Below, one piece after another: positions 4,568 through 40,052 of a stretch of DNA of 64,000 nucleotides. The DNA is from Escherichia phage rV5_ev158. Location of the stretch: sequence record LR694611. One strand, written 5' to 3'. A model generated the notes under the pieces. It was not told where the DNA came from and searched no databases. It was given only the letters and a program-made list of their open reading frames with translations. Made by a program: the position numbers and the translations under genes. Numbering within the stretch: position 1 is the first letter of the stretch; each line of letters opens with the position of its first letter.

Positions 4568-5281
4568 ATGCTGAATACTAAACTGATCGACAACCTGGAA
4601 AAACTGTCTCAGCCTGAAAACTACCTTTGGTCTGCCAACTGGGTGGAAAACTGGAACCGTGTGGCAGCTAAAGTGAAAAAATCATACACACCATTCGAAT
4701 TACAGCTTAGCTTCATTGAGGAAGAGTTCAATGAGGTTTTGGAAGAGCTGGAGAAAGGTGATGGTGGAGATCACCTGCTAAAAGAGGCCTGCGATCTTCA
4801 CGTTGTCACAAGTTATGCCGCTTATCTTGTTAATGATAATCACGAAAAGTGGTCAAACCTGTTTGATAATCCACGAGGTCTTAAGTTCAAGATCGGTGAG
4901 TTCTATGATACACTGATCGCTGCGAAAAACACATCCAAGCAAAGAGCGTCAGCTTACCGCTTAGCGGAGTTGTCAACAGCTTTGCTGTTCCAGCTTCGCG
5001 GCGATGTGTGTGGTATGATGCGGAAGGTTCTCAAATCTAATGACAGCAAGTTTGCACGGATCAACCATCTACGATATTCTCACGGTGCCAGTGCAGATAT
5101 GTCTACTGAATTGCTCATAGAGTTAGAGATTGAAGATCTTGAGCGTCGTTTTGGTGGTCGCTACGAAGGTTTCGTTGCTAAAGAGGAGTTCTACAACGGT
5201 AATAAAGTTATTATATTCCTTGACAGTAAAGGTAAGATTATGAAGCCTTCGAGCTTCAAGGATGTAACAGAGTATATTTAA
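4568..5281 (+). CDS. MazG-like nucleoside triphosphate pyrophosphohydrolase (putative)
   Basis: EEEFNEVLEELEKGD...LLKEACDLHVV fits the MazG/HisE EExxE...D acidic helix pattern; judged by eye. Confidence 0.45.
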   Translation: MLNTKLIDNLEKLSQPENYLWSANWVENWNRVAAKVKKSYTPFELQLSFIEEEFNEVLEELEKGDGGDHLLKEACDLHVVTSYAAYLVNDNHEKWSNLFDNPRGLKFKIGEFYDTLIAAKNTSKQRASAYRLAELSTALLFQLRGDVCGMMRKVLKSNDSKFARINHLRYSHGASADMSTELLIELEIEDLERRFGGRYEGFVAKEEFYNGNKVIIFLDSKGKIMKPSSFKDVTEYI

Positions 5282-5287
5282 CAACAT

Positions 5288-5311
5288 AGCCGGGATTACC
5301 CGGCTTTACTT
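5288..5311 (+). terminator. hairpin AGCCGGG-ATTA-CCCGGCT after the MazG-like gene (weak T-run)
   Basis: inverted repeat read from sequence. Confidence 0.35.
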
Positions 5312-5343
5312 ATTATGGAAAGTATGCAGTGAGGTAGTTAGTT

Positions 5344-5652
5344 ATGTACAAGCATTCCAGAGATCTTGAAAAAGATGCTGTGTTTGGCGACCAGATGAAG
5401 GAGCTGATCAAACTTATAGGTAGAATGGAAGATAAGTTTGACACTAAAATCTACATCGATAGCAAGATCTTCAACCACAAAATATGGACAAATGTGTGTG
5501 TTGGGCTACATGGTGATAAAGATATTGTAAATTTGGTTGTAATAAAGTTCATAGTGTGGCAGAATAGGACTATACGTTATTCCGATCCACACTTACTTGT
5601 TTATCCTATAAAAGACCTACTACAGAAGGAGGACTGCAATGCCGTTATTTAA
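5344..5652 (+). CDS. hypothetical protein
   Basis: ORF in plus-strand gene chain. Confidence 0.45.
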   Translation: MYKHSRDLEKDAVFGDQMKELIKLIGRMEDKFDTKIYIDSKIFNHKIWTNVCVGLHGDKDIVNLVVIKFIVWQNRTIRYSDPHLLVYPIKDLLQKEDCNAVI

Positions 5653-5908
5653 TCTTGCTAAACCTGTAGAAGCACACCAGTTTGATGGAAGCTCTTCATC
5701 AGTATCTGATCTGCAACGGTGGATTGATACAGGTGTGTTTACATCGTCACCTGTTCGGACCAGAGATATTCGTCGCATGTGTGAGCTTGTTGAGCCGTTT
5801 GGCAACTTGGTTTTGTACCAGGGAGATTGGTTAGTTGACTTTATGGGAGACTGGTTGGTAATGAGTAAAGAAGAGATGTTTAAAATTTTTAAGGAAGAGG
5901 CCGAGTAA
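5639..5908 (+). CDS. hypothetical protein
   Basis: ORF in plus-strand gene chain; ATGA-type coupling to the ligase gene. Confidence 0.45.
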   Translation: MPLFNLAKPVEAHQFDGSSSSVSDLQRWIDTGVFTSSPVRTRDIRRMCELVEPFGNLVLYQGDWLVDFMGDWLVMSKEEMFKIFKEEAE

Positions 5909-7191
5909 TGCATCAAATCAAAACAACACTGTACGCACTGAACAAAGATGGCAGCTACCAACAGTGGAAAGTATTCACTGATGGCGAAAAGGTTATCGTA
6001 GAGTTTGGCAAGCTTGACGGTAAATTGCAGTACAAAGAGACGGTATGTACACCTAAAAACGTAGGTCGTGCCAACGAGACTACAGCTGAGCAACAGGCCG
6101 AGCTTGAGGCTATCAGCAAGTGGGAAAAACAAGTCCGTCTGGGGTATGTTGAAAACATGGAAGATTGCGAGCAGGGTGTTGATCTTTTACCTATGCTGGT
6201 GCATGACTACCTGAAGCGTGGCAAGGCACTTAAATTACCTTGCTGGATCTTGCGTAAGTTAGATGGCCTTCGTCTGCTTGTTGTTTTCCAAAATGGTGAG
6301 CCTAAATTTATTTCCCGTGGTAATAAGTCCTACCCTATTCAAGGAAAGCTTTTAGAGCAACTTCGTTCTTTCCATTCTACCACTGGGATTAAACAACTTG
6401 ATGGGGAACTATACATTCATGGTCTTCCTTTGCAGAAAATAGTGTCTCTTGCTAAACGGTGGCGCACACAGGAAGAGATTCAGGCCGAGATCGATAAAGA
6501 CTATGAGGCAGATAAAAAACGCCGTCATGCAGCAATTAAGGCAGGCTTATCAACATACAAAAACTTCAACAAGGTAGATATTCCTGTCGATGTTGAGCCT
6601 GTTCGTGATGATTTGCGTTACGGTGGATACTGTAGCTACGATCTGGAGTATCACATTTTTGATATTCCTAGCGACAAGGTGTGGTGGGATCCAGAAACAG
6701 AGTCTGGACGCTGCAAGGATCTTATGGATGCAGAGGATACCGTTACCACTCTGCTGCTTGATCATATCAAGGTTGTTGACGCAGAGCTTGCGTACACAGT
6801 TGATCATTGCGAAGAATCTGTTGGTATATTCATGTCCGAAGGATATGAAGGTACTATCATGCGTAATTTCTGCGGTAAATATGAGTATGGTCAGCGAACA
6901 TCTGAAGCATTGAAATGGAAAAAGTTCAACGACGCAGAGGTGAAAGTTATTGACGTTGAGAAAGATAAGAATGATGAAGGTGTTCTTATCTGTGTTGACA
7001 AGGAAGGTGTTGTTGTTAAAATGAAGATGAAAGGCACGCACGAGGAGCGTAGCTATGACAGGATGCAGGAAATGATCGGCAAGTTTGTCACCTTCAAATA
7101 TCAAGCAAGGACAGAAGACAACAACTACCAATTCCCTGTCGGTATCTGCGTCCGAAATGTTAACCCAGATACTTGGGAGGTTCTGGAATGA
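5908..7191 (+). CDS. ATP-dependent DNA ligase
   Basis: motif I KLDGLR (KxDGxR), motif IV EGTIMR, motif V KWKKF. Confidence 0.8.
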   Translation: MHQIKTTLYALNKDGSYQQWKVFTDGEKVIVEFGKLDGKLQYKETVCTPKNVGRANETTAEQQAELEAISKWEKQVRLGYVENMEDCEQGVDLLPMLVHDYLKRGKALKLPCWILRKLDGLRLLVVFQNGEPKFISRGNKSYPIQGKLLEQLRSFHSTTGIKQLDGELYIHGLPLQKIVSLAKRWRTQEEIQAEIDKDYEADKKRRHAAIKAGLSTYKNFNKVDIPVDVEPVRDDLRYGGYCSYDLEYHIFDIPSDKVWWDPETESGRCKDLMDAEDTVTTLLLDHIKVVDAELAYTVDHCEESVGIFMSEGYEGTIMRNFCGKYEYGQRTSEALKWKKFNDAEVKVIDVEKDKNDEGVLICVDKEGVVVKMKMKGTHEERSYDRMQEMIGKFVTFKYQARTEDNNYQFPVGICVRNVNPDTWEVLE

Positions 7192-9230: not shown

Positions 9231-9513
9231 GAGACCTGTAAAAGAGAAATTCGATAAGACAGCTTTTGTATTCGATACACCTCTGGACGACATCATTAGA
9301 GGTATGCAATCATTGTATCGGAAGGCTGAATCTGAGCAGCTGTCGGAATCAGAACTTTACTGGCTCGGTTGGTGGGAGTTAAACCTGCCTAAAGCTGAAA
9401 GTTCTTCTCTGAGAACTGTTAAAACGTGCGCCCAAGAAAACGCTGCACTTGGAATCTACCACAAAAGGAAAAGATCAACAAAAAGCTCTCCAAGAAAGAC
9501 TAAAAAGTCTTGA
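9220..9513 (+). CDS. hypothetical protein
   Basis: ORF in gene chain. Confidence 0.4.
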   Translation: MMAKRPVKEKFDKTAFVFDTPLDDIIRGMQSLYRKAESEQLSESELYWLGWWELNLPKAESSSLRTVKTCAQENAALGIYHKRKRSTKSSPRKTKKS

Positions 9514-9539
9514 CAAAAATGTTATTAATCTGATATTAT
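9510..9539 (+). promoter_or_regulatory. sigma70-type promoter TTGACA-N17/18-TATTAT
   Basis: read from sequence upstream of 9573 gene. Confidence 0.55.
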
Positions 9540-9572
9540 CGGTCAGATATCTATAAACTAGGAGAACTAGAT

Positions 9573-9881
9573 ATGCTTAAAATTTTTATTGTTGAAGATA
9601 AAGATATTGTCCAGTTGTATGCAAACGAGAATCATAAAGGTATGATTCTGAAGAAGGCAAGCAACCTTCATGAAAACACAATTCAACCTGGCGATGTAAT
9701 TAAGATCTGTGGTTATATGATACCAGACTCCTTGATGAAAATAACCCACCACTGGGGGTCTAATCCGTTCCTTTTTGAAAAGTATTGGGATGTTGAGTCA
9801 CTTATTGCAGAGAGTGATGATGCATTCCATTACAGCATCCAACCATCTTGCAGAATAACTAACAGGAGGGTCTTTGAGTAG
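9573..9881 (+). CDS. hypothetical protein
   Basis: promoter plus AGGAG RBS upstream. Confidence 0.5.
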   Translation: MLKIFIVEDKDIVQLYANENHKGMILKKASNLHENTIQPGDVIKICGYMIPDSLMKITHHWGSNPFLFEKYWDVESLIAESDDAFHYSIQPSCRITNRRVFE

Positions 9882-26690: not shown

Positions 26691-27740
26691 ATGAATTTAA
26701 CACCTCGCAGCACCATGGTACACGGCATGAAAGAGAAACAGAACGGTTTCGAACCTATGAGTAATAAAATGTTTGGTATGCCGGGCGGTATCATGGAAAC
26801 ATACAGCTACCCAACACCTGTTGTTGACCACGTTCTTTATATCGACGATTTGGAAGACCTGCAGGATCATATGTCTCGCCTGCAGACGATCCGTATGGCT
26901 CAGCCTGAAGAAAGCATTCGAGTGATCATTAACAGCCCTGGTGGTTGCGTGCACATTGCGATGGCTTATCTGCAGGCATTCCGCGAGTCTCAGGCAAGCG
27001 TTGTTGCACATGCGGAAGGGATGTGCTGCTCTGCGGGAACAATCTTATGGCTGGGTTGCAAAGAACGTACTGTGGCTCCGGACACAGAGTTTATGTTCCA
27101 CTACTATCAAGGTGGCACTTATGGTAACGGTGTGAACATGAATACTCAGGTCAGCTACTGGAAAAAACGTTTTGAACGCCTGATCGAAAAATACTACGGT
27201 GGGGTGCTGACAGAAGATGAGATCGCATCCATCACAGCTGGTGGCGAAGTGTGGTTGGACGGAGAAGAGCTGGCAGCACGCACTGGAGCTATTATTCTGG
27301 ATGAAGGCAACATACAACGCATCCAGAACGGACAAAAACCGAAAAAGCTTCTGGCAAAAGGTGATGAAGAAGGCGTGTTAGGTGAAGCAGGTCTTCCGGA
27401 GATTCACCAGTGCACATCTTTAGATGAGTTAGTTCATGCTGTTGAATCTGCAAAAGCGGGTGGTTCGAAAGGTGATGTTCACACTGTGTTCCTGAATCTG
27501 CAGATGGAAAGTGGCGAGACCGTCAGAATTGCCCTGAGTGAGATTACTTCAGAAGATCTGCAGCGATTCTCTGTCGTTGAACTTCAAGACATTCTGTCCC
27601 AATTGAAGACAACCCTGAACGGCGGTGAAGAGGTTAAGGTAAAAGATAAGACTCGCAAGCGTCTGGTGGACAATATTATTAAAACAGCAAAAGAGCTCAA
27701 TGAAAAAATCCTGGGTGCAGGAATTGTCGAAGAAGCTTAA
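26691..27740 (+). CDS. ClpP-like serine protease with C-terminal extension
   Basis: INSPGG and GMCCSAGTILWLG...MFH motifs resemble the ClpP/S14 fold; ~150 extra C-terminal residues. Confidence 0.7.
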   Translation: MNLTPRSTMVHGMKEKQNGFEPMSNKMFGMPGGIMETYSYPTPVVDHVLYIDDLEDLQDHMSRLQTIRMAQPEESIRVIINSPGGCVHIAMAYLQAFRESQASVVAHAEGMCCSAGTILWLGCKERTVAPDTEFMFHYYQGGTYGNGVNMNTQVSYWKKRFERLIEKYYGGVLTEDEIASITAGGEVWLDGEELAARTGAIILDEGNIQRIQNGQKPKKLLAKGDEEGVLGEAGLPEIHQCTSLDELVHAVESAKAGGSKGDVHTVFLNLQMESGETVRIALSEITSEDLQRFSVVELQDILSQLKTTLNGGEEVKVKDKTRKRLVDNIIKTAKELNEKILGAGIVEEA

Positions 27741-28606: not shown

Positions 28607-28882
28607 TTGTGTATTGTTGTTTTCAACAAGAGGGGGTCATTTATGTACAAGTCATTTTCAATCTACTCAAGACAGGCGAAACACTACACAGAGATCCTGA
28701 TCACTCAGAAAAAATCTGTGGAAGGTGAGTGGGAATATCACCATAAAATGTTGCGTCCAGACTGGGTTTTTGATAGACTTATTGCTATGATCCCTCTCGG
28801 AGAAGTATACCCTCTGACAGCCCATCGCGATGCTTGGGATTTAATTGATTACATAGATTCATTTAAGGAGCCTAGATTATGA
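28607..28882 (+). CDS. hypothetical protein
   Basis: ORF in gene chain. Confidence 0.45.
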   Translation: MCIVVFNKRGSFMYKSFSIYSRQAKHYTEILITQKKSVEGEWEYHHKMLRPDWVFDRLIAMIPLGEVYPLTAHRDAWDLIDYIDSFKEPRL

Positions 28883-29277
28883 AGATTGAGATTACTAAAG
28901 AAGGTAAGAAAGTGTCCGGCAACTATGCAACAGTAATTCGGGATTTAATGTTTGAAGCCACCAAGATCGGTACATCTAAAGTTGGTCAAACTGTTAGTGT
29001 GAAAAGTAATATCGCCACAGGAGAGAAGGTATTCATTGTGGTCAAAGGGCAGGATCCCGTGGAAGGAACAGTGGGCCGAGGTGGCTACCTATGCATTTCT
29101 GAAGAGCCGCGTATGTTAGTGGCTGACGCTACTATGGGTGGGAAACGTGTGTGCGAGGCGGATGAGGTAATGATTATCCAACCTGTTGATCCAGATGACC
29201 CAGCAACTTGGGTGGTAGGAAATGAAATCTTCTCTTTAGAAGAGTTATCCTTCCCAGCACCGCGCTCTGTTCAGTAA
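28879..29277 (+). CDS. hypothetical protein, possible small-paralogue family member (MKIEIT N-terminus)
   Basis: N-terminus resembles 34243, 36392 and 39837 ORFs. Confidence 0.5.
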   Translation: MKIEITKEGKKVSGNYATVIRDLMFEATKIGTSKVGQTVSVKSNIATGEKVFIVVKGQDPVEGTVGRGGYLCISEEPRMLVADATMGGKRVCEADEVMIIQPVDPDDPATWVVGNEIFSLEELSFPAPRSVQ

Positions 29278-29314
29278 TAATTTATCTTACCGGGGACGGT
29301 AGGTAGGAGGTAGC

Positions 29315-29548
29315 ATGAAAGTTAAATTTCTTACAGATTTAGGGTACCCTTCCTTGGTTGACTGTGTTGGTAAAATTGTGGAAGCAAAACGGCTATCTGC
29401 AAACGAGAATGTTGTCCTGGTTAAAGGGAAGGATTTACTAGCTGCAGGTGCAGAGTCTGGCAGGATCTCTCCTGATTATATGTATTACCTATCTTTAAGT
29501 AATCTGCCAGAGCGAGGCGGTAAAGGCCTTGAAGTTGTGGAGGAGTGA
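29315..29548 (+). CDS. small acidic paralogue-family protein
   Basis: MKVKFL...VLVKGKDLLAAGA...LEVVEE shared with 32970 and 33187 ORFs. Confidence 0.5.
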   Translation: MKVKFLTDLGYPSLVDCVGKIVEAKRLSANENVVLVKGKDLLAAGAESGRISPDYMYYLSLSNLPERGGKGLEVVEE

Positions 29549-30078
29549 CAGGTATGCTTCTGATTAACTGGGAAGACCTCTATGGGGACAAAGACCCTGT
29601 TGCGTTTGTTGATCGTAGGTGGAGATACACTGAAGAACAACTGGCGGCAAAAAATTTAACTGCAAAACGCAGAAAGATCATCCAGTGCAAGTACAAATAC
29701 GCACAGTTTGCTGCAAAAGTGTCTCCACAAATCGAGAGCTTTGTGCTTAAATTGTATGACGAGTACCTCAAATTCAAATTGGATTTTGTGCAGGTGTACC
29801 GTGCACAGGTACGACCAGATACCAACATATGTAGATGGAAGGTTGTTTGTGAAGGTAAAGATTTGCCGCTCAGCTTGACAATTGAGTGGCGTTATGGGTA
29901 TCATGAGTGTGGTCTGTATGATATTTGGGATGTCATTGTAGATCCTGCTAAGCATCTGAACACAGAGGAGCTGGAATATATCAATAAGGTTATTCTCGAT
30001 ATGTTTTTCAGCTACACACATGAAAACTCTGAGAAAGAACGGGATAATTTTCTTGACACCCTCAGCGACCATTTGTAG
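29545..30078 (+). CDS. hypothetical protein
   Basis: ORF in gene chain. Confidence 0.5.
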   Translation: MTGMLLINWEDLYGDKDPVAFVDRRWRYTEEQLAAKNLTAKRRKIIQCKYKYAQFAAKVSPQIESFVLKLYDEYLKFKLDFVQVYRAQVRPDTNICRWKVVCEGKDLPLSLTIEWRYGYHECGLYDIWDVIVDPAKHLNTEELEYINKVILDMFFSYTHENSEKERDNFLDTLSDHL

Positions 30079-30108
30079 TATACAATTTAACCTACAAAGG
30101 GAGGACCA

Positions 30109-30336
30109 ATGAGTATAAATGTTGTGCTAATAGGTTACCTGGTAATGTCCGTTATAACAGCGGTATTCTTGACAGGTGTATGCATCGTGTCCAGACGAAG
30201 GGTGAAGTTTGATGATTTTATCACCATCATCACTGCTGCACCTTTTTGGCCTGTTGTTATCTTCATCGTAATAATGTGCCTAGTTGATTACTACAAGAAT
30301 ATCAGGAAGGAGAGTAGGGATGGAGACCGCACCTAA
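30109..30336 (+). CDS. small membrane protein (two hydrophobic helices)
   Basis: VVLIGYLVMSVITAVFLTGVCIV and AAPFWPVVIFIVIMCLV segments. Confidence 0.5.
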   Translation: MSINVVLIGYLVMSVITAVFLTGVCIVSRRRVKFDDFITIITAAPFWPVVIFIVIMCLVDYYKNIRKESRDGDRT

Positions 30337-30472
30337 AACTATCTATACTGTTCTTAAAGATATTGCGTTCTACGCAGATCTTAGCCAGGCACCTTTATGG
30401 GAAAAGAGCATGTATTTAAAATGGTGCGTTAATTTAGGGAGACCTTCCAGTGTTTCAAGCCATGTTTATTGA
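30320..30472 (+). CDS. hypothetical small protein
   Basis: ATG after AGGAAGGAG RBS, in frame with ORF 30284..30472. Confidence 0.35.
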   Translation: METAPKTIYTVLKDIAFYADLSQAPLWEKSMYLKWCVNLGRPSSVSSHVY

Positions 30473-30555
30473 GATGCTATCTGGGATATTGTTACTGGTA
30501 GCCATCTTAGGTGGTGCAGTTCTGATGTATAACTATCTTGAAAAAGGAGACAGCA

Positions 30556-30741
30556 ATGGTAAAAAATAAATCTTTAGAGCAGGCTGAAAACCTTCTCCAC
30601 GAGCTGGTAAAGGAGTGGAAAGTTGAATACTCAGATTTTAATGCACGAGAGGGTGAAGATTATTGGCCTACGGAGCGCTCAGAGGGAGAATGGTATCAAG
30701 ATTTTATAGAGTGGTTATATCAGACGTGCGATGAGGGGTGA
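30556..30741 (+). CDS. hypothetical small protein
   Basis: ATG after AAGGAGA RBS, in frame with ORF 30538..30741. Confidence 0.4.
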   Translation: MVKNKSLEQAENLLHELVKEWKVEYSDFNAREGEDYWPTERSEGEWYQDFIEWLYQTCDEG

Positions 30742-31208
30742 CGATGTTTGTTAAATATGTAAAAACGTGCCTCAACAGTCTTGGCAGAGAGCATTGGTAC
30801 ACCTTGCTTGAAAAAGGGGAAATTTTAACAAAATCTGGAAAGATAACTTTGATACCTCTTGATAGTAAAGGTAAAGACCCGTCACGACTTGTTATAGATG
30901 ATTACGTTACAGGTGTGACGTTCGAGGTCTCTGTGGAGAGGTTAATACGCAGAGCTGGCGGCCCTTATGACCGAAGAGAGTATGTTTTCGATTCCGTTAC
31001 AGAGATGGGGGAGCATCCGTCTTTAATGTTCAGGATGGTAATCAGAGATATGAGGTCATCTATAGATAGGATCGTAAAGGACATTAAGGAACCTTTTAGA
31101 GTAAAAGTTAAGAAGTTTTTCGATTCTAAGATTAACATACTCGCCGTTGCACTAGGTGTAGTTCAACTTCTGTTAATTTTGCACTATTTTGAACTACTAT
31201 TTAAGTAG
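30738..31208 (+). CDS. hypothetical protein with C-terminal hydrophobic segment
   Basis: C-terminal ILAVALGVVQLLLILHYF. Confidence 0.5.
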   Translation: MTMFVKYVKTCLNSLGREHWYTLLEKGEILTKSGKITLIPLDSKGKDPSRLVIDDYVTGVTFEVSVERLIRRAGGPYDRREYVFDSVTEMGEHPSLMFRMVIRDMRSSIDRIVKDIKEPFRVKVKKFFDSKINILAVALGVVQLLLILHYFELLFK

Positions 31209-31270
31209 TAGTTGAGATATGGCACAAAGGATGTGCCATAGTGAAATAAACTAAGAAAGAGGTAGAGAGA

Positions 31271-31618
31271 ATGCCAAAGATTAAAACGTTATTACTGTGG
31301 GTGGCTGTTTTAGCTTTTATAGGGTACTGGACTTGGGAAACTGAATTAAAAGATATCGGATATACCAGTCTTGAGAGCAAGGCGTGCATTGGCATAACCG
31401 ATGCGTTCAGGCAAAATGCTATGGATCACGAATGTGTTGATGCAGATATAGATGAGAAACTGTCTAAGGACAAAGATTTTTACCATGGGCATGCTTTACT
31501 TGATAGTGGTGACACTGTAGAGTTCTGGTCGTGGTTTCGTGAAGATGGAACAATAAAAACAGCAGTAAAGATCTCTAACAAAGAGTTAATGCTGTTGCAG
31601 CAAAAGGAGGCTCAATGA
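31271..31618 (+). CDS. hypothetical protein with N-terminal signal/anchor
   Basis: N-terminal KTLLLWVAVLAFIGYW hydrophobic segment. Confidence 0.5.
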   Translation: MPKIKTLLLWVAVLAFIGYWTWETELKDIGYTSLESKACIGITDAFRQNAMDHECVDADIDEKLSKDKDFYHGHALLDSGDTVEFWSWFREDGTIKTAVKISNKELMLLQQKEAQ

Positions 31619-31902
31619 TCTGGATATCCTATGCTGATGGCACCATGCTGTATACTGCAGGTACCAGATATGAAGTTCAGGAGAACGATAAAAAATTTAT
31701 CGTAAAAACATTTGACAAGGACGACAACCTTTTGCTAGAATTGACTTACAAGGTTGGAGAGGTATCCAATATCCAATTGGATTGTGGTTATAAAGATAAT
31801 CCACTCAAAAAACCTGGAATAGGCAAGGCTTCAGAAGAACGTTTGTCTCGTATTGCAGAAAGCGTTTCTACACAAAAATCTAAGAAGGGGACTAGAAAAT
31901 GA
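31615..31902 (+). CDS. hypothetical protein
   Basis: ORF in gene chain. Confidence 0.45.
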   Translation: MIWISYADGTMLYTAGTRYEVQENDKKFIVKTFDKDDNLLLELTYKVGEVSNIQLDCGYKDNPLKKPGIGKASEERLSRIAESVSTQKSKKGTRK

Positions 31903-32093
31903 AAAACTTACGTTTTAACACTTATTACTACAACACATTGAATGATTTGTACTATATTGTTCGAAGTAAAAGTCCTGAAACAGTCCTATTCTGCCGTGAA
32001 CCTTTCAAAGGGGAGGAAGTAGAGTCTGAGATGAATGTTAGCCAAATCACCTCTTTGTTGCTCTCAGGCGCAATGGAAGAAGCAATATTCTAA
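31899..32093 (+). CDS. hypothetical protein
   Basis: ORF in gene chain. Confidence 0.4.
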   Translation: MKNLRFNTYYYNTLNDLYYIVRSKSPETVLFCREPFKGEEVESEMNVSQITSLLLSGAMEEAIF

Positions 32094-32111
32094 ACCAGGC
32101 GGGAGGGTTTT

Positions 32112-32297
32112 ATGAAGCACTATTGCCTGTCTGGTAGAATGGGTGCAGATTGTGATTGGGTTTTCTTAAAACTTGTCAGCATTCGAGAGTTCATCCCAGA
32201 GGAAGAGCAAGAAAGCGAGCTGATGTCATGGATCAACCATTACGGTAACACTTTTCGGCATGTTAAGGTAGAAGAGTTGCCAAGCGAGGCTGATTGA
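32112..32297 (+). CDS. hypothetical protein
   Basis: ORF in gene chain. Confidence 0.4.
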   Translation: MKHYCLSGRMGADCDWVFLKLVSIREFIPEEEQESELMSWINHYGNTFRHVKVEELPSEAD

Positions 32298-32392
32298 CTA
32301 TGATTGCATCAATATTAACGTTTATGGGTGGCGTGGCATTCGGATTCATTGTTTGCCTGTTTATAGTGATTATGTCTATGCGAGGCTGAATT

Positions 32393-32689
32393 ATGAAACT
32401 TTTTGAGTGGTTTAAAAAGTTTAAATATAAAGCTGTAGCCATCGTGCCGTGGTCCATTCAGTGGGTTGATGAAGGTGGTCTACCGATACCTGGTGACAAA
32501 GATACTGGGTACTGGATTATGATGGAGAACGGGTTTGGAAAGCGAAAGTATACGTGCACAAACTCTACTCGATCTGCACTTAATAGAGTTCCTGGTTACA
32601 AACTTATGGTTGTGTGGAAAATGTCAGGCGTGCCTCCAGCCAATGCTCAATTTCTTACTGACAATCCTACCACGGTAGAGGAAGATTGA
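32393..32689 (+). CDS. hypothetical protein
   Basis: ORF in gene chain. Confidence 0.45.
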   Translation: MKLFEWFKKFKYKAVAIVPWSIQWVDEGGLPIPGDKDTGYWIMMENGFGKRKYTCTNSTRSALNRVPGYKLMVVWKMSGVPPANAQFLTDNPTTVEED

Positions 32690-32973
32690 TAATGAAAAAG
32701 ATTAACAGTAGTGAAGTCGAGTTTAAACTTGTCGGAAAAGGCACTTACTGGGAAGTTCGTCAAAAGGTATATTTGTTCGGTCTTATTCCTTACTGGTCTA
32801 AATTCTACTGGGGAGCTAACGAGTGGGGAAGATACGCCACCAAATCAATGGCACTTATTGGTATAGCAGAGTACATTGCAGCCAGAGATAGGGTTGAAGA
32901 CACTTATTACTATACTGCGGACGATATTCGTAACAGTGTTTACGTCCCACAACCACCTGATGGAGACCGTTGA
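32686..32973 (+). CDS. hypothetical protein
   Basis: ORF in gene chain. Confidence 0.45.
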   Translation: MIMKKINSSEVEFKLVGKGTYWEVRQKVYLFGLIPYWSKFYWGANEWGRYATKSMALIGIAEYIAARDRVEDTYYYTADDIRNSVYVPQPPDGDR

Positions 32974-33197
32974 TGAAAGTTAAAGTTTTAGATTCAAGCT
33001 TCTATATTGGTCAGGAGCCCTTAGTGGGGAAAGTGTTTACTGCTGTCCCTAACGAAGATTACCCCGACCTTTTAAAAATAAAAGGGGCAGATCTTATTGC
33101 CGCTGGTGCATCTCAGGAATGCTTTGACAGTCAGTGGACCTACAACTTTGCCCTAGGTGAGGATGTAGAGATAGTGGAGGACAATCATGAAGGTTAA
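32970..33197 (+). CDS. small acidic paralogue-family protein
   Basis: MMKVKVLDS...KIKGADLIAAGA...VEIVED. Confidence 0.5.
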   Translation: MMKVKVLDSSFYIGQEPLVGKVFTAVPNEDYPDLLKIKGADLIAAGASQECFDSQWTYNFALGEDVEIVEDNHEG

Positions 33198-33441
33198 AAT
33201 TCTTGATTCTAACGTCTACTTGGGACAATCCTTCCTGAAGGGAAAGGTCGTTCCTGCGGTATACTTTGAAGGGTTGCCGTGGGATGATCCTGTTCGGCAA
33301 CATCACAGTTATGTAGGCCACAACGTAGTGTTTATCTTAGGAGCAGACCTGATCACCGCTGGTGCACCTGAATATTATTTCGGGGAAGAGTCCTATTATG
33401 CCTTTGGGGTAGGGTCAGATGCAGATATTGTAGAGCTGTGA
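33187..33441 (+). CDS. small acidic paralogue-family protein
   Basis: MKVKILDS...ILGADLITAGA...ADIVEL. Confidence 0.5.
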   Translation: MKVKILDSNVYLGQSFLKGKVVPAVYFEGLPWDDPVRQHHSYVGHNVVFILGADLITAGAPEYYFGEESYYAFGVGSDADIVEL

Positions 33442-33453
33442 TGGGCAACCGTT

Positions 33454-33852
33454 GTGAAAAATAAACTGTTCAAAGTTACAATGAAAATTCGCGGAGCTTG
33501 GAGCGTAAAGCAAGGGCGTATTCCAGAATTTGAGAAAGACTTCTACGTAGTCTCCACCTCGGAGGAGGCTGCATGCTGGCAAGCTGGCTATGCCTATGCA
33601 AGAACCTGGTACGAAGGATACCAGACTGGGGGCTATGACGGAGAAATTATCAGCAAGGGTGTAGAAGAAATTAATGTGTTGACAAGTGAAAAAGTTTTTG
33701 TTATAGTGCATCCAGATTCCAGAGTGAAGCATTACTGGAATGCCAGAACAAAAACTTGGACACCGTTTGCAGATTCTGCTACACCACTTTTAAACCAGAA
33801 AGCTCTTGACTCTGTCCCGAGCTATGGGGTTGTTGAAGAAAAGCTAAACTGA
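33454..33852 (+). CDS. hypothetical protein, paralogue of the 35659..36054 product
   Basis: shared HPxS..YW....WTP....TPxL segment with the 35659 ORF. Confidence 0.5.
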   Translation: MKNKLFKVTMKIRGAWSVKQGRIPEFEKDFYVVSTSEEAACWQAGYAYARTWYEGYQTGGYDGEIISKGVEEINVLTSEKVFVIVHPDSRVKHYWNARTKTWTPFADSATPLLNQKALDSVPSYGVVEEKLN

Positions 33853-33869
33853 AACAGTGGGGTACTAAC

Positions 33870-34160
33870 ATGATGGATTTAGTTCTGGACACTGATAACA
33901 CCGGAGCGTTTAAAAAGGGTGGTGTAACAAGCGTTGACCAATCCTTCCCTGCCAAGATTGACTCAAAATGGACCTACAAGTTTGATGGAGAGATCTTCGC
34001 AAATGATGAGAAGGTTGTAGATGCTGCAGCCATTTTGAACGCTCTAGGGTACGACCCTGTGAATTCTTTGATCAAGGATCCTGTTGAGTTTGCAGAGTAT
34101 GTTCGAAAAATGGCAGATCTTGCTGTGGATATTTTAAAAACTATCGACAACAATCTGTAA
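33870..34160 (+). CDS. hypothetical protein
   Basis: ORF in gene chain. Confidence 0.45.
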   Translation: MMDLVLDTDNTGAFKKGGVTSVDQSFPAKIDSKWTYKFDGEIFANDEKVVDAAAILNALGYDPVNSLIKDPVEFAEYVRKMADLAVDILKTIDNNL

Positions 34161-34166
34161 AAACTG

Positions 34167-34195
34167 TTGACACAACGCTTCAGATTTAGTATCAT
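34167..34195 (+). promoter_or_regulatory. sigma70-type promoter TTGACA-N17-TATCAT, followed by a short GC hairpin
   Basis: read from sequence. Confidence 0.5.
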
Positions 34196-34242
34196 TGTTT
34201 TCAAAGAGGGTTTGGTTCCCTCTTCTTTAAAAGGAACACGTT

Positions 34243-34560
34243 ATGCAAATTGAAATCACTGGCAACGTAGAAATCACTGAAGGTATGGTGTCTTTCATTT
34301 CCAACAAAATGTCTAAACTGGAGCGTTTGCACCCCTCTGCCAACTATGCACGTGTGAGTGTAAAAGTTGAAAATGATCACCAGGAAGTTATGGCGTTCAT
34401 TTTTGACAATTCTGGAAAAGAAGTTATTGCCAAGGCTAAAGGTAGTGATGCTTACGAGGCAACTGACCGTATGGTAGATGTTGCAGCACGTCAGCTGGCT
34501 AAATGCGGTGGAAAGAAAGGTAAGGGGAAAGGCAAAGTAAAGATTGACTTTGGAGAATGA
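34243..34560 (+). CDS. hypothetical protein (MQIEITG N-terminus, Lys/Gly-rich tail)
   Basis: ORF downstream of promoter. Confidence 0.5.
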   Translation: MQIEITGNVEITEGMVSFISNKMSKLERLHPSANYARVSVKVENDHQEVMAFIFDNSGKEVIAKAKGSDAYEATDRMVDVAARQLAKCGGKKGKGKGKVKIDFGE

Positions 34561-34697
34561 GGTGCTACAACGGGTGTGATTAAGAAATTAGTCCCAAATG
34601 TAGAGATTGCATGCTTTGAAATTATGTTTGCAATCGCAGTTGTAGTTAATGTGTTAGGTTACGGCTATTAATATCAAATAATTGAGGAGACCTCTAA

Positions 34698-34967
34698 ATG
34701 AAAATTAAATTATTCAAAACTGAGCTGGCAGACAAAAACTGTGGACTGGTTGAAGGCATGATTGTTGAAGCACAACCAGTGGACTATATGAAGGTGGTTC
34801 GTGATGCCCTGGGTGAAGGTTTTGATCTGATGGAGCCAGCTCTGCGAGAAGATGTTATCGAGATGGCTAAAAAGCACACACCTGAAGGTTTGGTGGTGTT
34901 TGTTGCACCGGGTAACGGAGAAGAATTGATTGTAACTCCTGATGTGTATGAGATTGTAGAGGAATAA
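34698..34967 (+). CDS. small acidic paralogue-family protein
   Basis: MKIKLF...LVVFVAPGNGEELI...YEIVEE. Confidence 0.5.
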   Translation: MKIKLFKTELADKNCGLVEGMIVEAQPVDYMKVVRDALGEGFDLMEPALREDVIEMAKKHTPEGLVVFVAPGNGEELIVTPDVYEIVEE

Positions 34968-35058
34968 TCCTGCTTGGATTAGCATACTTCCTCGATAAGG
35001 AAGATTTGTAATTATTTGTGGGAAAGGAATCCCAATCTCTTACCAGAGGTGATACTAT

Positions 35059-35322
35059 ATGATTGTTTATTTTAAAACTTCAGGTGGATACCCTGATTCT
35101 CAAAGCTTGATCGGAAAAACGTGCACAGCATACTCACCTCTTGATGAGGAGGTAAGCGATATTCTACGAAATATGTATCGGATTGACCCCCAAGAAGCCT
35201 TTGATCAAAACCTTGTATTTGTCAAGGGCTCAGATATGAAGTCTTTGGGAGCATTCCCTGAAGCAGATGATGATGCCGTTTATTCGTTCATGACTCCTTT
35301 TGAAGCTATGGTTGTTGGGTGA
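35059..35322 (+). CDS. small acidic paralogue-family protein (divergent)
   Basis: LVFVKGSDMKSLGA core. Confidence 0.45.
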   Translation: MIVYFKTSGGYPDSQSLIGKTCTAYSPLDEEVSDILRNMYRIDPQEAFDQNLVFVKGSDMKSLGAFPEADDDAVYSFMTPFEAMVVG

Positions 35323-35326
35323 TAAT

Positions 35327-35659
35327 ATGAAAGTACGCTTTATTGGTGAAACAATTCCTGTGCATCTCCGGTCTCCTGAGGATTCTGCAGATCTTGCATC
35401 TCAAAAGGCGAGAGGTTATGATAAGAAAGTAACCTCAACCGATGTAGTGCTTGAGGCTACCAGTCTACCTGACCCTGCTGCATTCTTTAATCATTATGGG
35501 TACTATTTCAGCAATCTGATGAATATCGGTGAGCTTGTGTTTATTAGTGGTGGAGAGATTGTTAGCAAGCTTGGCGGCGATCCAGATGTCTTTCATGAAA
35601 CCTGTCCTTTTGCATTTGTGGTAGGTTCAGATGTGGAAGTTATTGAGGAGGTGCGGTAA
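35327..35659 (+). CDS. small acidic paralogue-family protein
   Basis: MKVRFIGE...VEVIEEVR; start set at internal ATG, in frame with ORF 35300..35659. Confidence 0.45.
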   Translation: MKVRFIGETIPVHLRSPEDSADLASQKARGYDKKVTSTDVVLEATSLPDPAAFFNHYGYYFSNLMNIGELVFISGGEIVSKLGGDPDVFHETCPFAFVVGSDVEVIEEVR

Positions 35660-36054
35660 TGGTAAGCCTATACCGTGTTGAGTATAGCTCAGATACTGTA
35701 TACAACGTAAGAAGCAAAGATCGCAGCGACAGAGTGCAAGAAATGTATGTTCTTGCCGACAGTCCGTTATCTGCAGCGTTCAAGGCAGGGGCTCTTGCAT
35801 CTCGTTGGAAATTTGAAGGGGGATCTTTCTATGAAGAAACCCTTGAAGATTCTGTTGTTATTTCTTCTGTAGAGGTTTCAGACGACTACGAAGGGAAAAA
35901 GTTCGTAATGCGGCACCCACACAGCAACATTGCGTACTACTGGGATGTTCTGAACAACGAGTGGACCCCAGATCTTCAGAAGGCTACTGTGCTAACACCG
36001 TTTTTGGCAGATAAGTTCCCACCAGAAGGTAATTTATCCGCACTGTTTCAGTAA
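35659..36054 (+). CDS. hypothetical protein, paralogue of the 33454..33852 product
   Basis: RHPHSNIAYYWDVLNNEWTP matches HPDSRVKHYWNARTKTWTP. Confidence 0.5.
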   Translation: MVSLYRVEYSSDTVYNVRSKDRSDRVQEMYVLADSPLSAAFKAGALASRWKFEGGSFYEETLEDSVVISSVEVSDDYEGKKFVMRHPHSNIAYYWDVLNNEWTPDLQKATVLTPFLADKFPPEGNLSALFQ

Positions 36055-36072
36055 TTTTCTTGCACACAGGTG

Positions 36073-36101
36073 TTGACAACGCCAACCCTGTGTGAAATAA
36101 T
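36073..36101 (+). promoter_or_regulatory. sigma70-type promoter with -35 TTGACA embedded in an 8-bp inverted repeat CACACAGG/CCTGTGTG
   Basis: read from sequence. Confidence 0.5.
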
Positions 36102-36130
36102 ACCTTCATCTTAACAAGACAGGAGACCGA

Positions 36131-36391
36131 TTGATGAAGATTAAATTGAAAAACCTTGAAACGGCAGAGATTCAGGACGGTGTTGATTTCCGTTCTAAAG
36201 ATGGTGACATCTTAGATGTAAATATTCCAACCTACGAGCTGATTAAAGGTTTTGGCAACGTTCCGGAAGAGGATATTACAGAAATTCTTATGATGTTGAT
36301 TCTTGACGGAACTGTGTTTGCAGGTGAAGGTGAGAACGCTATTGCAATCCCAGGCCATTTTTATGAAGTAGTTGACGAAGAGGTGCTGTAA
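36131..36391 (+). CDS. small acidic paralogue-family protein
   Basis: MMKIKLK...YEVVDEEVL. Confidence 0.5.
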   Translation: MMKIKLKNLETAEIQDGVDFRSKDGDILDVNIPTYELIKGFGNVPEEDITEILMMLILDGTVFAGEGENAIAIPGHFYEVVDEEVL

Positions 36392-36742
36392 ATGAAAGTA
36401 GAAATTACCGGTTTTGATGTGAATGTGGTTCCGGAAGATATTTTAGCTAAACTTCCAGAAGGTTTTGGTAACGGCGTTGTGGTGGATGCTGTTCCTCCTA
36501 CCAAAGACATTCTGCTGCAGTATGGTGTAGCAGAGGAAGATGTCGATAAAGTTCTTACAATGATGGCAATCGATCGTGTTGTCGTTGTTAAAGGTCTCGA
36601 TAATTTTGAGAGTGATCCCCTGATTATTCGTGGAGATGACTACAAAATCATCGATAATGAAGGCCAAGAGTTCTATGAGCCTTGTGCAGAAGATATTCTT
36701 AACTTATTACTGGAAGCAGGCACCGAAGAGGAGGACGAATAA
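36392..36742 (+). CDS. small acidic protein (MKVEITGF N-terminus)
   Basis: ORF in gene chain, acidic tail. Confidence 0.5.
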   Translation: MKVEITGFDVNVVPEDILAKLPEGFGNGVVVDAVPPTKDILLQYGVAEEDVDKVLTMMAIDRVVVVKGLDNFESDPLIIRGDDYKIIDNEGQEFYEPCAEDILNLLLEAGTEEEDE

Positions 36743-37071
36743 TGAAGATTGACCCGTTACTGAAGGCTCGTGCAGAAAAAGCGTACACCATTAAGTTGAC
36801 CAACCTGGTTCCTACTTGTCATCCGGATGTAGGTTGGCCCGAAGGTTTGGTGGAGGGAACTGTAACAGCTGCATACCTTCCTAACATCAAATACCTTATG
36901 GAAATCTTGGAGCTGGATGAGGAAACTGCAGAACAGTTCCAGTTGGATATGAAACAAAGTGGGACTCTGGTTATTCACGGGTGGTACAATACTAAAGATG
37001 CAGAAGACCCTCTGGTAACTTCTAATCTGGCATATGAAATCTTAGGACCTTTGAACCTGGAGAAAGACTAA
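36742..37071 (+). CDS. small acidic protein
   Basis: ORF in gene chain. Confidence 0.5.
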   Translation: MKIDPLLKARAEKAYTIKLTNLVPTCHPDVGWPEGLVEGTVTAAYLPNIKYLMEILELDEETAEQFQLDMKQSGTLVIHGWYNTKDAEDPLVTSNLAYEILGPLNLEKD

Positions 37072-37358
37072 TGAAAGATCTGGTTAAGATTAAGATTAAA
37101 GATACCAATGGAGAACTCAGTCATTTTGGAATTAATGATGGTGACGAGCTGATCGCACACCTGCCTACCAAGGAAGTTGTAAGCAAAGCAGTTGCCGGAG
37201 AAGAAGATGCAATGCAGGCTGCAGGTGTGGATGAAAACTATGTAGCCATGTGCATGTGCCGAGATCAGGTTGTTCTGTATAAAGCGTATCGACCAAACGG
37301 AGCCACGGAGTGGCTTGTATTCCGACCCGAAGGATATGAAATCTTAGAGGCACTATGA
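37071..37358 (+). CDS. small acidic paralogue-family protein
   Basis: MKDLVKIKIK...YEILEAL. Confidence 0.5.
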   Translation: MKDLVKIKIKDTNGELSHFGINDGDELIAHLPTKEVVSKAVAGEEDAMQAAGVDENYVAMCMCRDQVVLYKAYRPNGATEWLVFRPEGYEILEAL

Positions 37359-37438
37359 TAAATCTTGCCAAGGTTGCAACGGCACTGTTAATTATTTGCT
37401 GGTCAGTAACCTTAACACTGTGTCTTGTATTTCAGTAA
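37355..37438 (+). CDS. small hydrophobic peptide (27 aa)
   Basis: MINLAKVATALLIICWSVTLTLCLVFQ; ATGA overlap with upstream stop; below ORF-track cutoff. Confidence 0.3.
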   Translation: MINLAKVATALLIICWSVTLTLCLVFQ

Positions 37439-37739: not shown

Positions 37740-37880
37740 ATGACTAATTTTACTGAAGCTTTAATGATGGCCTTGTCTGTTTTAGCGCTATCGGTGTGTT
37801 TTGGGGCGTTATTCACATCTCTGGTTAAAGTTTTACATACAGTATTATTACCCAAGGAGCGCAGTAATGACGAAGATTGA
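37740..37880 (+). CDS. small membrane peptide (46 aa)
   Basis: MTNFTEALMMALSVLALSVCFGALFTSLVKVL...; RBS AAGAGGTGAGGA; below ORF-track cutoff. Confidence 0.35.
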   Translation: MTNFTEALMMALSVLALSVCFGALFTSLVKVLHTVLLPKERSNDED

Positions 37881-38118
37881 CTTAAATGCTGGAGACCATG
37901 TTGTTGTCAAATGCATCGGAGATTATCTTGGATTCACAATCGGCAATACTTACGAGGCGGTAGTGGCGAAGGTTTACCATGATAAAGTCCTCAGTCTTGT
38001 ATTTGACTGCGATGATGATGGGGATGACCGATACGTCTGTGAGGTGCTGGCACGAGACGATAGTGAAGACCAGAAATTCCTGGTTATTGAACTGAACGGT
38101 ATTTTTGTAGAACGTTAA
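37867..38118 (+). CDS. hypothetical protein
   Basis: ATG (MTKIDLNAG) after AAGGAG RBS, in frame with ORF 37801..38118. Confidence 0.45.
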   Translation: MTKIDLNAGDHVVVKCIGDYLGFTIGNTYEAVVAKVYHDKVLSLVFDCDDDGDDRYVCEVLARDDSEDQKFLVIELNGIFVER

Positions 38119-39836: not shown

Positions 39837-40052
39837 ATGAAGATAGAGATATTTGGTGGAGCTGACAACACTCGTGGCCTGATTTACCTTGAATTCGATG
39901 AATCATACCTGCCAGAGGTGTTAAATATAGACTCTGTTGCTGAGGCTTTGGGAGTAAACCCTAAAGAACTCCACTCTTGTGCTGAGATCGATGGTTGGGA
40001 AGAGACCATGAACATTGATTTCAGTGAAGTAGAGGATGAACCGCTAGACTGA
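39837..40052 (+). CDS. small acidic protein (MKIEIFGG N-terminus); last plus-strand gene
   Basis: GAGGAG RBS; acidic tail EVEDEPLD. Confidence 0.45.
   Translation: MKIEIFGGADNTRGLIYLEFDESYLPEVLNIDSVAEALGVNPKELHSCAEIDGWEETMNIDFSEVEDEPLD

Follow-up and report, generated by a model that had tools for sequence, protein, structure and literature searches.

Why does a phage carry a dense series of short genes for small acidic proteins, and do these genes share one origin? The question is raised by positions 28,607 to 37,358 of a 64,000-nucleotide stretch of Escherichia phage rV5_ev158 (sequence record LR694611; the whole stretch is called the window here, and genes are named by their first position). 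A sequence-only reading of the window had listed 13 open reading frames (ORFs) as members, or probable members, of a single family of at least ten paralogues. All listed ORFs are present on the + strand where they had been placed, with the starts of three of them at 32973, 36134 and 35327 in the deposited annotation. The expansion of small acidic paralogues is real and the total of ten is correct (10 of the 13 ORFs, by blastp, jackhmmer and leave-one-out searches); the remaining candidates, 34243 (an S30AE protein) and the singletons 28879 and 39837, drop out. The single family was not supported, as the ten genes fall into two families of five, A and B, which are unlinked by sequence (hhalign 8-11%). 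We consider it reasonably likely that old duplications, in tandem and of blocks, gave three independent families (A with five, B with five and C with two members) within the distal portion of a long + strand unit and that their products serve as specialised binders.

Family A

For an all-vs-all comparison with blastp 37 + strand proteins of the region and its flanks were used, going beyond the listed ORFs. Three separate clusters were obtained: 32973/33187/29315, with weaker links to 35327 and 35059; 36134/36392; and 33454/35659. The expect values (E) within family A, which comprises the five proteins of the first cluster, ranged from 3e-15 to 6e-4 in this 37-protein database. When jackhmmer was run against all six-frame ORFs of the window together with shuffled decoys, all five family A members were retrieved, plus the pairs 36134/36392 and 33454/35659. 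In a leave-one-group-out test the profile contained the remaining groups with their orthologues, and the omitted protein was ranked among about 10,300 real and decoy sequences. Each of the five ranked first, with E 9.5e-19 to 6e-4. Judged by these searches 29315, 32973, 33187, 35059 and 35327 are true paralogues. The V[LV]VKGxDL[IL]AAGA strand, which had been noted in several of the listed ORFs, is the signature of family A (G-x-DL-I-x-AGA); in a wide alignment, conservation of G38, L41 and G45 reaches 90% or more.

The first member, 29315 (29315..29548, + strand like all genes described here; rV5 ORF127, 77 amino acids (aa)), matches PHROG 5009 with E 8e-36 and 32973 with a blastp E of 1e-6, and its leave-one-out rank of 1 was reached at E 2e-7. 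The member chosen for modelling, 32973 (32973..33197; ORF140, 74 aa; PHROG 5009 E 3e-38), is predicted to fold into a small SH3-like barrel of five strands, with a single short helix. Its end overlaps by 11 nucleotides with 33187 (33187..33441; ORF141, 84 aa), which has a short insertion between strands 2 and 3, is 42% identical to 32973 (E 3e-15), matches PHROG 5009 with E 4e-32 and reaches 96% with 35327 in hhalign. At the same site 35059 (35059..35322; ORF147, 87 aa) carries a longer insertion; jackhmmer from 29315 finds it with E 2e-18, it ranked first when left out, and it is assigned to PHROG 13920 with an additional weak match to PHROG 5009 (1.2e-4). The longest insertion is found in 35327 (35327..35659; ORF148, 110 aa; leave-one-out rank 1, E 2e-5), from which jackhmmer retrieves the other four members with E 1e-7 to 3e-18.

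In the PHROGs family A is thus split over three entries (5009, 13920 and 13661), none of which has an assigned function: 29315, 32973 and 33187 match PHROG 5009 over the full length of its profile (E 1e-32 to 1e-38), 35059 only at the value given above, and 35327 has no match to it and is assigned to PHROG 13661. The five-plus-five structure is not captured there.

Family B

The links within family B are weaker. In the first jackhmmer round, with window ORFs and decoys, 34698, 36742 and 37071 stayed unlinked, as did 28879, 39837 and 34243, and pairwise hhalign links within the family were weak, yet nearly full-length in contrast to noise matches. In a semi-global shuffle test of 595 pairs, in which the first two residues were held fixed, the top 14 pairs all lay within A, within C or within {34698, 36134, 36392, 37071}, the best noise pair having z = 3.97. 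The leave-one-group-out test placed all five B members first, 36742 included (E 6e-8 to 0.048, database of 10,290). When the ORFs of the divergent syntenic relatives L022, L025 and L027 were pooled with the database, jackhmmer from 36134 alone retrieved all five B genes of the window at E <= 1e-19 and zero decoys. Upon addition of the L022 orthologues the hhalign values rose to 86% for 36392-36742 and to 94% for 36134-36392. We therefore regard 34698, 36134, 36392, 36742 and 37071 as true paralogues as well.

Of these, 34698 (34698..34967; ORF146, 89 aa) lies apart from the other four, directly 3' of a gene for a ribosome hibernation factor. It ranked first of about 10,300 when left out, was found with E 6e-20 in the pooled jackhmmer search from 36134 and has a shuffle z of 5.3 to that protein. 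The other four follow each other: 36134 (36134..36391; ORF150, 85 aa), the modelled member, which jackhmmer connects to 36392 with E 7e-25; 36392 (36392..36742; ORF151, 116 aa; leave-one-out rank 1), with an additional acidic C-terminal extension and a net charge of -21; 36742 (36742..37071; ORF152, 109 aa; leave-one-out rank 1 with E 0.048 in 10,290, jackhmmer E 2e-19), with an N-terminal extension; and 37071 (37071..37358; 95 aa; leave-one-out rank 1, shuffle z 6.1 to 36392), from which jackhmmer recruits every B member in the pooled database. In the reference rV5 record (11780-12050 of L003) the orthologue of 37071 is in two parts, ORF153 and ORF154, by a frameshift or a sequencing error.

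The PHROGs divide family B over five entries (11868, 12359, 12155, 12457 and 12794), again without assigned function. Its closest relatives beyond the orthologues are an 86-aa protein of Vibrio phage Vc1 (A0A6M5CA15), for which no function is assigned and which is the best match of the family B model in BFVD (30% identity, template modelling (TM) score 0.72, E 5e-5), and proteins of about 90 aa (P0126-P0135) that match the family B profile with E 2e-11 to 2.5e-5, none with an assigned function. Two of the latter, P0127 and P0134, lie within arrays of genes for about 90 aa on syntenic Vequintavirus-like contigs.

These tests also bear on the view that no family exists and that only the Met-Lys start, the acidic composition and chance make the proteins look alike. 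A start of the MK[IV]x[IV] type is indeed found on unrelated proteins, namely 28879, 39837 and, as MQIEIT, the hibernation factor; the start alone is therefore not diagnostic. Several B pairs are also individually non-significant. However, in the decoy-controlled iterative searches and the leave-one-out test every A and B member came first among about 10,300, and with the first two residues fixed the top 14 pairs of the shuffle test all fell within A, B or C, so that similarity limited to start and composition fails as an account of the ten members. For these this explanation is already refuted and practically nil; it stands only for 28879, 34243 and 39837.

Predicted structures and the relation between the families

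Confident models were obtained for both families by structure prediction. The family A model (32973, alignment of 29 sequences; predicted local distance difference test score (pLDDT) 89.9) has five short strands and one short helix carrying G-x-DL-I-x-AGA. The high-confidence prediction for the family is a small SH3-like beta-barrel, about 70 residues long, in which strands 2 and 3 are separated by a variable insertion. As modelled, it belongs with the SH3-like barrels represented by PsaE, the Spt5/NusG KOW domain, eukaryotic SH3 and the retroviral integrase C-terminal domain. Sequence identity to these is 4-25%, with no Pfam SH3 or KOW match, and the helix after strand 3 and the variable insertion are features of family A itself. 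The resemblance is at the level of the fold only, and no function can be transferred. Among viral predicted structures many matches to the model are uncharacterised proteins (60-90 aa) of unrelated phages, T4-like, T5-like and Vibrio phages among them, with TM 0.7-0.85 in some cases, and the search in BFVD also finds the 35059 orthologue of Shigella phage CM1 (TM 0.81).

The family B model (36134, alignment of 28 sequences, AlphaFold2; pLDDT 86.1) has the order strand 1-strand 2-[two helices]-strand 3-strand 4-strand 5. The prediction for family B is thus five strands and, at the site where the longer A members have their insertion, two inserted helices. Second among the viral structures matched by this model is an 83-aa protein encoded in the window itself (37867-38118, rV5 ORF157; Foldseek E 0.04, TM 0.52), without sequence similarity; it may be a further small barrel of the same general type.

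The remark of the sequence-only reading that it did not recognise the family is borne out by the databases. In Pfam seven of the ten members have no family at E <= 1 and 36742 has none at E <= 0.1, while 37071 gives two sub-threshold chance matches. Searches of NCBIfam and of Protein Data Bank (PDB) sequences with the members were empty, and a search of the defence set PADLOC-DB gave no family at E <= 0.1 for any of the ten. The sole matches in profile libraries are PHROGs of unknown function.

Do A and B descend from one small beta-barrel ancestor and are merely diverged past routine sequence detection? Both families share a layout with an MK[IV]K[IVL] first strand, G-x-[IV]-V-x-A in the second, a variable insertion at an equivalent site, a hydrophobic VVF-KG strand and Y/F-x-[IV]-[IV]-E in the last. 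The two models have five strands each in the same order, and the A and B genes are interleaved within one gene run. In three of the five family A leave-one-out runs the B member 36392 was the next-best real ORF, and both models weakly match the same proteins of Klebsiella phage ZCKP1 and Raoultella phage Ro1. In hhalign a merged A profile gave <1% against the B groups and a diverse A profile 8%, confined to the N-terminal 28 columns. The richest A and B profiles reached 10-11% over 80 columns in global mode, which is the best cross-family score, eight control ORFs giving 3% or less; although it is above the controls, a score of this size is not evidence of homology between such profiles. Neither profile-profile nor iterative search gave a significant sequence link, even with divergent members included. 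In addition, the B model retrieves no family A protein from BFVD, the helix with the A signature has no counterpart in B, and the shared termini may merely be the paired first and last strands of any small barrel. A single superfamily of all ten genes is therefore a serious but rather doubtful proposition, and we treat A and B as independent families.

Selection and conservation

The sequence-only reading had also taken the expansion to suggest diversifying selection. Pooled Nei-Gojobori estimates over nine Vequintavirus genomes, a gene-wide measure that is blind to site-specific or episodic selection after duplication, point the other way. For the ten members the proportions of synonymous (pS) and non-synonymous (pN) differences are 0.10-0.26 and 0.005-0.045, respectively, and the ratio of the corresponding rates (dN/dS) is 0.03-0.16, indistinguishable from neighbouring genes. 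As pN lies far below pS, the ORFs are real genes under constraint, and by this measure each A and B copy is shown to behave as a functional gene under purifying selection. This argues against ongoing gene-wide diversifying selection among orthologues.

Each of eight further Vequintavirus genomes sampled retains the five A loci and the five B genes. In the divergent relative L022 every one of the ten genes has its own syntenic orthologue (one-to-one, 35-80% protein identity), and the duplications are therefore old and stable. In Escherichia phage V18 (L006 8603-9201) the orthologues of 35059 and 35327 are truncated to 59 and 46 aa. The more distant L025/L027 lineage has one A, four B and one C gene, both A pairs adjoining C being missing; with five A and five B genes in one lineage and one and four in the other, copy number is lineage-specific.

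Recombination between paralogues happens, as seen from three chimeras among the database proteins. P0014 and P0018 have an N-terminal half of the 32973 type and a C-terminal half of the 33187 type, which would imply deletion by recombination between tandem genes, and P0028 joins an N-terminal half of the type found in phage mEp021 to a C-terminal half of the 32973 type.

These data are of relevance for an arms-race explanation, according to which the paralogues are a battery of diversified inhibitors of bacterial immunity under diversifying selection. Small acidic proteins in an accessory region, copy numbers that differ by lineage and the existence of chimeras would all fit, and the family A gene of temperate phages (see below) lies in regions where, as is generally known, accessory and counter-defence genes cluster. 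Against it speak the low dN/dS of every member, not above that of the neighbours, and the one-to-one orthologues kept across deep divergence. The lack of a PADLOC match points in the same direction but is a weak test, PADLOC being built of defence and not of anti-defence models. Furthermore, the BASEL study reported the Vequintavirinae to be exceptionally susceptible to restriction-modification systems (PMC8594841), and a literature search on Vequintavirus anti-defence found nothing relevant. We regard this explanation as unlikely.

Relatives of family A in other phages

Searches with the A and B profiles in 5.8 billion proteins returned only orthologues of the window paralogues and a few divergent ones, none with a Pfam domain. 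An exhaustive search of 1.84 billion representatives with a hidden Markov model (HMM) of family A gave 39 clusters at E <= 1e-3, most of them of 60-110 aa and a few long ones dubious, with the consensus MKVKLLNDGGY-G...VGKVVEA...I-G-DLI-AGA...Y-F-lG-E-EIVEE. The match to P0100 (4,388 aa) was treated as spurious, the matched stretch lying outside its YDG/MBG domains, and P0087, with DUF7399, is uninformative, being a chimera of 98 aa from a contig of 657 bp.

Among the IMG/VR contigs with the gene, ten of 35-52 kb and one of 6 kb, family A is single-copy except in L011. Five of the ten contigs have the family A gene among recombination or single-stranded DNA-binding protein (SSB) genes, a Dam methyltransferase gene and apparent xis/int genes; Dam was confirmed by blastp in three contigs, the recombination/SSB and xis/int neighbours being named from ORF translations only. 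The co-occurrence of A and B on 52-kb contigs was considered as a link to temperate phages and rejected, as these contigs turned out to be pieces of a divergent Vequintavirus-like phage.

The temperate coliphage mEp021 has a true family A homologue, gp40, with the same size and the same motif. It is 46% identical to 29315 over its full length and is the nearest relative of that protein (tblastn, blastp). Only one copy is present, between Q and the holin gene and with unrelated neighbours; gp38, 39 and 41-45 were checked as further members and have no similarity. Other members of this temperate-phage group reach profile E values of 1e-7 to 1e-19 and likewise share the size and the motif. In contrast to the five copies of rV5, the homologues of temperate phages are mostly single-copy, placed either between Q and the lysis genes or close to recombination, methyltransferase and int genes.

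Outside the rV5 group a local multiplication of family A is possible in two cases. The 48-kb viral contig L011 holds, at 4893-6222, one clear family A gene with two weak A-like matches just upstream, and P0107 (136 aa) resembles two family A domains fused in tandem, with two matched stretches and the motif twice. In view of L011, the statement that such an expansion is unusual for a phage was too strong. Multi-copy families of small genes occur in other large phages, and as it stands the expansion is an ordinary, though tidy, uncharacterised accessory-gene paralogy.

No paper describing families A or B was found in the literature, and the paralogues are not mentioned in the rV5 genome paper (PMC3606486), the BASEL study (PMC8594841) or the paper on the mEp phages, where gp40 is not mentioned either. 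The sequences are already public as hypothetical proteins and PHROGs of unknown function; their description as families is new and tidier.

Charge, promoters and a proposed function

Nine of the ten members have an isoelectric point of 4.05-4.7 and a net charge of -6 to -21. Two near-consensus promoters of the sigma-70 type, each with 11 of 12 hexamer positions matching, lie on the + strand within the gene run. The first (34167..34195; TTGACA-17-TATCAT) occupies the gap 5' of the hibernation-factor gene and 34698 and equals the annotated P144 of rV5 (DQ832317), and the second (36073..36101), which has an extended -10 element (TG), precedes the run of four B genes and equals P150 of the same record.

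We propose that the A and B proteins would be non-structural, non-enzymatic, acidic accessory proteins whose genes would be transcribed by the host RNA polymerase from sigma-70-type promoters, probably early. They may bind host (or phage) proteins stoichiometrically and so modulate their partners, each paralogue being specialised for its own. Such partner specialisation would explain why all copies are retained and are neither redundant nor rapidly diversifying. What suggests binders is their size, fold, charge and promoter type, together with the accessory regions in which the single-copy homologues lie. A non-structural nature would fit the main text on the rV5 virion proteome, where gp133 is the sole protein named from the region (PMC3606486). 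Similar arrangements are known from the multi-copy sets of small early genes of large lytic phages, such as the host-takeover module of SPO1 and the terminal-repeat sets of Twort-like staphylococcal phages, where tightly packed and often translationally coupled small genes follow promoters of the host type and occupy an accessory part of a large myovirus genome. The rV5 run is similar in this respect; no sequence relationship exists between these sets and the rV5 genes, for which early timing and takeover are conjectural.

Several points weigh against this proposal. The searches gave no homologue of known function from which a partner could be read, and the mechanism is conjectured from the size, fold, charge and setting of the proteins. 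Acidity does not set them apart, as many neighbouring unrelated proteins are equally acidic. The timing of expression of the A and B genes is suggested by matches to a promoter consensus, and the literature search gave no Vequintavirus transcriptome paper. Since the 35059/35327 pair is disrupted in V18, these two copies at least can be lost under laboratory conditions. The two parts of our reading therefore differ in strength: that A and B are old and stably kept paralogue families with each copy constrained appears very likely, whereas specialised protein binding is a tentative proposal that may well turn out to be wrong.

The proteins could also be nucleic-acid- or ribosome-associated factors, i.e. 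KOW/SH3-like barrels that act on translation or RNA in connection with the hibernation-factor gene. This gene lies inside the gene run with 34698 just downstream, and both may be co-transcribed from the promoter-like site at 34167. However, the net charge of nine of the ten members speaks against RNA binding, Pfam gives no KOW match even at E <= 1, and L025/L027 keep B genes with no S30AE match recorded on any gene called in those loci. We hold such a role to be very unlikely and prefer the binding of protein partners.

Family C and neighbouring genes

A third pair, which was not in the list of the sequence-only reading, was found in the blastp comparison and agreed by jackhmmer. Family C consists of 33454 (33454..33852; ORF142, 132 aa), 3' of the A pair 32973/33187, and 35659 (35659..36054; ORF149, 131 aa), 3' of the A pair 35059/35327. 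The two proteins of about 131 aa share 28% identity (blastp E 8e-10), and both belong to PHROG 7379. The gene order A-A-C is thus present twice, as 32973/33187/33454 and 35059/35327/35659, and the best partners are 33187 with 35327 and 33454 with 35659. This suggests duplication of a three-gene block. The support is partial, since 35059 is about equidistant from 29315, 32973 and 33187 and not clearly closest to 32973. In L022 the C gene and the B run are separated by an additional gene for 98 aa (9389-9685; Pfam PF27050, Phage_P22_Y8K6), which the window lacks.

Three of the listed ORFs were rejected as members. The gene at 34243 (34243..34560) encodes a ribosome hibernation promoting factor (S30AE/RaiA), as annotated and as found in Pfam (PF02482, Ribosomal_S30AE; E 1.1e-12, 48.9 bits against a cut-off of 23.7). 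The singleton 28879 (28879..29277; ORF126, 132 aa, PHROG 5748) has no match in the Pfam scan, recruits only its own orthologues in jackhmmer and gives <1% in hhalign with the A and B profiles. The very acidic singleton 39837 (39837..40052; 71 aa, PHROG 12108) likewise recruits only its own orthologues. For both, membership is not shown.

The acidic C-terminal tail is best read as the last beta-strand. Strict [IV][IV]E[DE] tails occur on five of 181 greedily called ORFs and on 34698, which the caller had dropped, giving six against 0.14 expected. Two ORFs with strict tails are outside A and B, namely a ClpP-like protein (26691-27740, ending in GIVEEA) and the family C protein 33454 (ending in GVVEEKLN). 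A role of the tail as a shared linear motif or degron linked to the adjacent ClpP-like protease was considered and rejected, as the ClpP-like orthologue of L022 has no tail and the tail varies in the A and B orthologues.

The paralogues belong to a run of about 40 small + strand genes that are annotated solely as 'Phage protein' or 'hypothetical protein', the annotation being conflicting at 30744-31208. Many of these genes abut or overlap by a few bases, which suggests translational coupling. PhoH-like, ClpP-like and DNA adenine methyltransferase genes lie 5' of the run, and the sign of the GC skew flips near 40 kb, coinciding with a change in the direction of transcription. In the numbering of rV5 the region corresponds to ORF126-163, the distal end of a proposed transcription unit 82-163 (PMC3606486).

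Over the stretch 28800-37400 the window is 100% identical to Escherichia phage rV5_ev168 and 90-99% identical to about 120 further rV5-like Vequintavirus genomes, and by this comparison it is an rV5-like Vequintavirus of E. coli. Here, 18 records titled 'Campylobacter phage' (e.g., MG065655 and MG065666; host C. jejuni) are 95-100% identical to the rV5-like phages of E. coli. They are probably mislabelled or contaminant assemblies, and MG065655 is flagged UNVERIFIED.

Significance

Few coliphages are isolated as frequently as the rV5-like phages, which are used in O157 typing, biocontrol and therapy cocktails. About 40 consecutive genes of the region have no assigned function, and one quarter of them now reduces to two scaffolds with confident models. 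This gives a tractable entry, as ten related baits are available for interaction screens and one-copy and five-copy phages can be compared as they occur in nature. If the proteins are inhibitors of host factors or of immunity, they would show a phage building a stable multi-target toolkit by duplication. A and B might even be one ancient SH3-like scaffold, multiplied by rV5-like phages into a stable set of ten specialised binders that each neutralise or redirect a different host protein (e.g., in immunity or stress response), with the single-copy homologue of temperate coliphages as the ancestral one-target version. We consider this improbable, but if it is true, these proteins would form a new class of phage host modulators unified by their structure.

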